Positions 1-510 of a DNA stretch of 510 nt are shown here, one piece after another. A program made the translations under genes and the position numbers. The notes beneath the pieces are model-generated. The model worked only from the letters and a program-made list of their open reading frames with translations. It was not told the DNA's origin and made no database searches. The DNA is taken from the NCBI RefSeq assembly GCF_003334255.1, contig NZ_QOWU01000227.1. One strand, given 5' to 3'. Each line of letters starts with the position of its first letter. The first letter of the stretch is position 1. The stretch comes from Escherichia coli (GTDB taxonomy: Bacteria; Pseudomonadota; Gammaproteobacteria; Enterobacterales; Enterobacteriaceae).

Positions 1-501
1 CTCACCAGAGGCTTTCGCATCGCTACCCAGAGAAACCTTCCCATTCTCCCCATCTTCGACGCTGAAACCTGTAATTTCTGTTTTTTCCAGGCCATACACC
101 TTGTTGTACACGCCACGAACAGCACTGTCTGTCAGCTTGTGAGGTGGAGTATTTCCATTTTGTTCATTTTTTTTACCCTCAGCAGTCCTTGCAAAATCTT
201 TCAGCGCCGGGTCATGAAGTGTATGGGTGATACCCTTACCTTTAACGGTCACATTACCTTCTGAATCAAATTTGAAAAGTGTCCTCTTGTCGTTTTTTTT
301 CTCTTTTACTTCGTATCTGAAGTTACCATTATCGACTGTCTTTACAACTTCATAGGTGCTGCCATATTTAACCGGTCCGCTCTTCTGCGAATCATCCTGC
401 AACACTGAATATGTACCATTCTGCGCACTCACTCCACCACTCATCACCAGAAGCCCGGCCAGAGAAGATGACAGGAGTGTCATTGTAAACTTTTTACTCA
501 T
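1..501 (-). CDS. Exported protein of unknown function with N-terminal Sec signal peptide; partial, 167 codons visible, 3' end beyond window
   Basis: Reverse-complement reading from ATG (plus-strand 'cat' at 499-501) is open without a stop for 167 codons to position 1. Translation: [167 protein letters not shown]. The N-terminus has a clear n-region (KK), hydrophobic core and V-S-A cleavage motif. All three plus-strand frames contain stops (frame 1 at 262-264, frame 2 at 140-142, frame 3 at about 63-65). Product family not recognised from memory; no search was possible. Confidence 0.8.
167..174 (-). repeat. A8 homopolymer in the coding strand (T8 on plus strand), encoding Lys110-Lys111 within G-K-K-N-E
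   Basis: Direct read: plus strand 'catttttttta' around 165-175; coding strand GGT AAA AAA AAT GAA. Confidence 0.9.
293..300 (-). repeat. A8 homopolymer in the coding strand (T8 on plus strand), encoding Lys68-Lys69 within E-K-K-N-D
   Basis: Direct read: plus strand 'cgtttttttt' at 291-300; coding strand GAG AAA AAA AAC GAC. Confidence 0.9.
424..501 (-). other. Predicted Sec (signal peptidase I) signal peptide, 26 aa, cleavage predicted after VSA, before QNG
   Basis: MSKK (positive n-region), [16 protein letters not shown] (hydrophobic h-region), SGGVSA (c-region with small residues at -3 and -1). No cysteine follows the cleavage site, so it is not a lipoprotein lipobox. The boundary is predicted by eye, not computed. 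Confidence 0.7.
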
Positions 502-510
502 TATGGATAT

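Follow-up and report, generated by a model that had tools for sequence, protein, structure and literature searches.

A Shine–Dalgarno core just beyond the window edge precedes the first ATG of the prophage adhesin gene eibD

The start of the immunoglobulin-binding adhesin gene eibD is very probably an ordinary translation-initiation region, with a short canonical Shine–Dalgarno (SD) core and initiation at the first ATG. The core, AGGA, occupies positions -12 to -9 relative to that ATG (bases 963-966 of GenBank record AF151675.1, here also called L001). Only its last base falls inside the window, by which we mean the whole 510-nt stretch of DNA that was analysed, and this is why a first-pass annotation confined to those letters saw no ribosome-binding site. 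Its headline of no SD motif before the start thus arises from the position of the window edge. The biological importance of the correction is small, and the useful lesson is methodological.

Identity of the gene

A megablast search against phage records identified the window as the reverse complement of AF151675.1 bases 966-1475, at 100% identity. This record is entitled 'Bacteriophage P-EibD' and describes a prophage of Escherichia coli ECOR-9 (protein AAF63040.1). Base 975 is the start of its annotated eibD coding sequence (CDS), 'immunoglobulin-binding protein EibD', and corresponds to window 501..499. The window holds one long open reading frame (ORF) on its minus strand, which exits at the low-coordinate end. 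The features of the window are as follows.

Window 1..501, minus strand: 5' part of eibD, codons 1-167, from 100% identity to AF151675.1 and translation.
Window 424..501, minus strand: predicted Sec-type signal peptide, residues 1-26, followed by Q27, from sequence rules for the n-, h- and c-regions.
Window 481..483, minus strand: internal Met codon 7, which is ATG in 8/25 loci and AAG (Lys) in 17/25.
Window 499..501, minus strand: start codon ATG (codon 1), the first start after an in-frame TAA, the annotated start and invariant in 25 loci.
Window 502..509, minus strand: A/U-rich spacer of 8 nt, TATCCATA, that separates the SD core from the start codon, read from the sequence.
Window 510..510, minus strand: last base, A, of the SD core AGGA; window base 510 is L001 966, and the AGG lies outside the window at L001 963-965.

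At full length the eibD product has 511 amino acids. It matches PDB 2XQH (residues 158-418, E = 2e-154) and 2XZR, both deposited as 'immunoglobulin-binding protein EibD', and its residues 434-510 match the YadA membrane anchor (PDB 2LME). The DNA identity to eibD, the 2XQH match and the YadA anchor match are the features of an Eib-family trimeric autotransporter adhesin, and the window gene is the known immunoglobulin-binding adhesin of this type from prophage P-EibD. Neither the gene nor its start codon or protein is new: the sequence has been in GenBank since 2000 and structures have been solved. Eib expression is reportedly highest in static cultures at stationary phase.

Window 1-423 (minus strand) encodes EibD residues 27-167. 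Most of this stretch is the N-terminal domain, residues 27 to approximately 157, which lies outside the solved structures; 2XQH begins at residue 158. Two runs of eight adenines on the coding strand (T8 on the plus strand) occur in the region that encodes the N-terminal domain, at window 157-164 and 293-300 (GGTAAAAAAAATGAA and GAGAAAAAAAACGAC). Homopolymers of the A8 type can be sites of slippage and of insertion or deletion. Length varies among close relatives around these runs, and their matches to the 510-nt query cover 468-519 nt.

An SD core at the window edge

The nine bases before the ATG that the window contains (window 510..502, minus strand) read ATATCCATA. They include no AGGA, GGAG or GAGG, and the first-pass annotation was right to record no SD-like motif in them. 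In AF151675.1 the upstream sequence can be followed further, as ...TTTAACAGGATATCCATAATG and, in a longer reading, ...GATAATTTAACAGGATATCCATAATG, and AGGA is found at -12 to -9. The annotation had proposed inspection of the extended sequence and had named a suitably spaced ribosome-binding site just past the window edge as the result that would contradict it. Such a site is what the extended sequence holds.

Four base pairs join AGGA to the anti-SD sequence ACCUCCUUA, at -4.1 kcal/mol (ViennaRNA duplexfold), so the site has the purine-rich complement to the 16S rRNA 3' end, 4 nt or longer, that a canonical SD requires. It is separated from the start codon by 8 nt, and its distance from that codon, measured in the GGAGG register, is 6 nt, a spacing appropriate to an SD. 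The duplex at the first ATG is the best among four candidate starts in the first 20 codons; the others are ATG7 (-2.2 kcal/mol) and GTG19 and ATG20 (both -3.6 kcal/mol). With an ATG and an AGGA core at normal spacing, the suggestion that initiation is non-canonical is not sustained.

We propose that translation would start at the first ATG (window 501..499), with AGGA at -12 to -9 pairing with UCCU of the 16S rRNA 3' end and the 8-nt A/U-rich spacer placing the ATG in the P site. Presumably the transcript includes AGGA and the ribosome makes use of it. In this proposal eibD would stand alone, behind a long intergenic region of its own, and would be translated independently of any upstream gene.

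Calibration against chromosomal genes

For calibration, we took an arbitrary 50-kb stretch of one E. coli chromosome and scored 41 annotated genes in it by the method used for eibD. Their duplex energies have a median of -6.1 kcal/mol, with quartiles of -7.4 and -4.1 kcal/mol. The eibD SD, at -4.1 kcal/mol, lies at about the lower quartile and is weaker than approximately 71% of the 41 genes. The proposal that initiation is weak can be retained in so far as the SD is a 4-bp match of this modest energy.

The position of the core is typical. A 4-mer core lies within -16 to -5 at 66% of the 41 real starts, versus 6% of random positions, and the commonest 5' positions of the core among these genes are -12 to -10, a modal position that AGGA of eibD fits. 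The optimum aligned spacing was reportedly put at 5 nt by Chen et al. in 1994. By the GGAGG register, eibD has an aligned distance of 6. In E. coli ribosome profiling data, it is at a distance of 7, over nucleotides -12 to -8, that complementarity to the anti-SD gives the best prediction of translation efficiency (Hockenberry et al., PMC5303271, section 2.2). The eibD distance thus lies between the 5 of Chen et al. 1994 and the 7 of PMC5303271. When the 60 nt upstream of eibD were shuffled, a core 4-mer fell in the right zone in approximately 12% of shuffles and a duplex of -4.1 kcal/mol or lower arose in approximately 23%. Taken alone, the AGGA motif is not statistically compelling; it looks like a normal, modest E. 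coli SD.

The same sample puts a scale on what can be seen from the edge of a window. A 4-mer core is present within -20 to -1 in 28/41 genes, but lies wholly within -9 to -1 in 10/41 only. The remaining 76% lack a core wholly in this interval, since its usual starting point is -12 to -10. A view of 9 upstream nucleotides cannot show that an SD is absent, and would return 'no SD' for about three-quarters of real genes. Because such a view is uninformative, findings of 'no RBS' at window edges deserve discounting.

Conservation and function of the initiation region

We compared 25 loci, of which 15 are annotated (from E. coli genomes and phage records) and 10 are IMG/VR contigs that were picked by a degenerate pattern on codons 1-8 only, blind to the upstream sequence. 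They comprise two upstream haplotypes, TTTAACAGGATATCCATA-ATG and TTTTATAGGGTATACCAC-ATG, with one copy of the TTTTATAGGGTATACCAC type carrying a 1-nt insertion; the 10 added IMG/VR loci yielded the same two. The haplotypes differ at 7/17 positions in -17 to -1, and AGG at -12 to -10 is kept in 25/25 loci. The fourth base of the core stays a purine, giving AGGA in the eibD type and AGGG in haplotype 2. The retention of AGG in both haplotypes fits selection on the putative SD. Conservation is nevertheless a weak argument here, because the 25 loci give just two independent upstream haplotypes, and it is the entire region from -34 to +70, not the SD specifically, that is conserved across them.

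Functional evidence comes from a close relative. Directly before its start, eibG of strain JNEC-KY208 matches eibD at every one of the last 60 nt, and the two are 96.5% identical over -168 to +30. A 2025 preprint (bioRxiv 10.64898/2025.12.25.695649) describes how pGEM carrying eibG with its 168-bp upstream region complemented the phenotype of a delta-eibG mutant, with EibG detected by immunoblot, and how the claA or claB CDS swapped behind the same upstream region restored chain-like adherence. As the constructs were on a multicopy plasmid with the SD left unmutated, the complementation means that the 168-bp region holds a working initiation signal and does not single out AGGA as the responsible element.

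A conserved upstream block and the transcription start

Immediately upstream of the core, a 19-nt block, ATTTGTATACAGATAATTT (L001 941-959, or -34 to -16; also L011 401-419), is invariant in both haplotypes, and its flanks are only approximately 60% identical. The block contains an 8-bp palindrome, TGTATACA, and a -10-like GATAAT at -23 to -18, and may be a promoter or operator. In haplotype 2 a promoter scanner reports TTGAAC-17 nt-GATAAT, with the -10 hexamer inside the block; this match is at chance level, 1.1-1.4 such consensus matches being expected in the scanned regions. No sigma-70 promoter-like site on the coding strand of the eibD record passes the scanner. The -35 spacing of the eibD-type haplotype is spoiled by a 3-nt gap relative to haplotype 2.

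By general promoter geometry, transcription would start 5-9 nt after the -10 hexamer. If GATAAT at -23 to -18 served as this hexamer, the start would therefore lie at approximately -13 to -9, on top of AGGA. A leaderless mRNA would begin at the start codon or a few nucleotides from it, and the only promoter-like element, a consensus match, would place the start at this upstream position instead. We found no mapped eibD 5' end in the accessible literature, which did not include the original descriptions (Sandt & Hill 2000; Sandt et al. 2002).

A tentative reading, to which we give low confidence, is that the 19-nt block would serve as core promoter or operator in a portable module of promoter, SD and signal peptide, with transcripts starting at AGGA and a leader of approximately 12 nt that carries the SD at its extreme 5' end. 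The same reading, as a whole no firmer, has this module common to many mosaic prophage adhesin genes. If it were true, the 3-nt gap of the eibD-type haplotype would account for a low basal level of expression and a need for activators.

The geometry of the block also underlies the alternative to an ordinary start that survives best, which we nevertheless consider improbable. Here a short-leader mRNA would start at or just inside AGGA by way of GATAAT, the leader would be approximately 9-12 nt, the SD would sit at the 5' end or be truncated, and initiation would be weak or partly independent of the SD. The invariance of the block between diverged flanks agrees with such an mRNA, as does the arrangement in haplotype 2, from which a start 5-9 nt beyond the hexamer would fall at -13 to -9. 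However, the promoter-like hit is a consensus match of a kind expected 1.1-1.4 times by chance, and the eibD record has no plus-strand promoter-like site, the 3-nt gap breaking the -35 spacing. The retention of AGG in both haplotypes, moreover, argues that AGG lies on the mRNA.

RNA structure at the start

Initiation could be conditionally weak if the SD were masked by a regulatory hairpin, and the minimum-energy fold of -20 to +40 does include a 6-bp helix between ACAGGA (L001 961-966) and UCCUGU in codons 9-11 (L001 1000-1005), with a mean unpaired probability of 0.38 for AGGA. This fold is, however, no better than those of shuffled sequences (z = -0.37; 64/200 shuffles gave a fold as good or better). 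Haplotype 2 lacks the helix, as do some haplotype-1 loci, and the helix shows no compensatory change, its one substitution being a C-to-T that leaves a G-U pair. Given this z score, the loss of the helix in haplotype 2 and the lack of covariation, we rejected an SD-sequestering hairpin as highly improbable. No Rfam family was found in the eibD leader region at E <= 1.

Choice of the start codon

The ordinary start at the first ATG is also supported by the reading frame. An in-frame TAA lies 7 codons upstream (L001 954-956), and as there is no ATG, GTG or TTG in between, translation could begin no earlier than at the first ATG. The annotations (GenBank, RefSeq PGAP) place the start at this ATG in 15/15 annotated records examined. 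Codons 1-6 encode MSKKFT in 25/25 loci despite synonymous changes (AGT/AGC, AAA/AAG and TTT/TTC), and this invariance indicates that they are read as protein. The preference of the first-pass annotation for this ATG, on the ground that it supplies a Lys-Lys n-region, agrees with its annotation in 15/15 records, its most upstream position and the presence of Lys-Lys in 25/25 loci.

The annotation was likewise right that a second in-frame ATG, at codon 7 (window 483..481), sits behind a poor site: the preceding bases, AGTAAAAAGTTTACA, pair weakly with the anti-SD (-2.2 kcal/mol). It is very unlikely that translation starts at this codon and that the first ATG is an artefact of annotation. Codon 7 is in frame and is ATG in eibD, eibC and some eibG alleles, but it is AAG (Lys) in 17/25 loci, and the product would begin MTLLSSS... 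and lack a basic n-region. Its upstream duplex is the weak one of -2.2 kcal/mol, and the protein-level invariance of MSKKFT in 25 loci despite synonymous changes argues that the preceding codons are translated. A codon 7 start was thus rejected as non-conserved, without an SD and at the cost of the basic n-region. Judged from the aligned loci, Met7 is an ordinary variable residue inside the predicted signal peptide, not a conserved alternative start, because only 8/25 loci have Met and 17/25 have Lys. Where Lys stands at codon 7, the n-region gains a third positive charge.

Upstream genes

Between the end of the nearest upstream CDS, orf-191D, and the ATG there are 363 nt in the eibD record, and in other contexts the distance from the end of the upstream CDS to the start is about 358-363 nt. 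Elsewhere the same start region is preceded by a DUF4376 gene, by an LPD38 gene or by no annotated gene within 434 nt. In a coupled gene pair the upstream stop codon overlaps the start or lies a few nucleotides from it, and the 363 nt at eibD are far from this arrangement. The idea that eibD translation is coupled to an upstream gene, or re-initiates behind one, has nothing in its favour besides having been suggested by the earlier reader; with an intergenic distance that excludes coupling, a stem-loop standing between the upstream CDS and the eibD ATG and different upstream genes before the same start region, we give it practically no credence.

Three dissimilar inverted repeats occur at the same place, approximately 100-130 nt upstream of the start, at L001 844-872, L010 ~360-392 and L011 293-332. 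The first is an annotated stem_loop in the eibD record and has an A/T-only stem (z = -0.9); the repeat in L010 has a 10-bp stem (z = -2.9) and that in L011 a 12-bp stem (z = -3.2). They look like a structure-conserved terminator of the upstream gene of the tail-fibre region. A second annotated stem-loop follows eibD (L001 2535-2563). With stem-loops on both sides, eibD would have the self-contained layout of prophage cargo ('moron'-like).

Signal peptide and the shared 5' module

EibD residues 1-26 have the features of a Sec-type (signal peptidase I) signal peptide by sequence rules: a basic n-region of MSKK, a hydrophobic core with a mean Kyte–Doolittle value of 1.48 for residues 8-22 and a c-region of V-S-A before Q27. 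Cleavage would probably occur before Q27. An 'EibD signal peptide' has been used to export EibA, and added SpyCatcher-sfGFP detected a SpyTag placed at the N terminus that cleavage of the signal peptide exposes (PMC12511318).

Similarity within the family collapses directly after the signal peptide, where we counted 22 distinct N termini among ORFs of 161-511 amino acids. The module of leader and signal peptide (-34 to about +75) is common to adhesin genes with unrelated mature parts. This pattern suggests that recombination may shuffle passenger domains behind a fixed 5' module.

Comparison with known systems

The window does not differ from eibD of P-EibD in ECOR-9 (AF151675.1): all 510 bases are the same, and so is the annotated start codon. 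Two genes of the 41-gene chromosomal sample have SDs much like that of eibD. These are ygdB, with (C)AGGA(T) at -12 to -9, and ygdT, with (C)AGGA(T) at -13 to -10, both with the same duplex energy of -4.1 kcal/mol. Unlike them, eibD is a prophage cargo gene that was acquired horizontally, and its leader is very rich in A/T.

Among its relatives, eibC, eibE, eibG and shorter 'YadA C-terminal domain' proteins share with eibD the 19-nt block, AGG(A/G) at -12, the ATG and a signal peptide that begins MSKKFT(M/K)T.... The haplotype 2 loci differ from eibD in having AGGG for AGGA and a better -35 element. In other Eib/YadA-like prophage adhesins, the mature proteins diverge right after the signal peptide.
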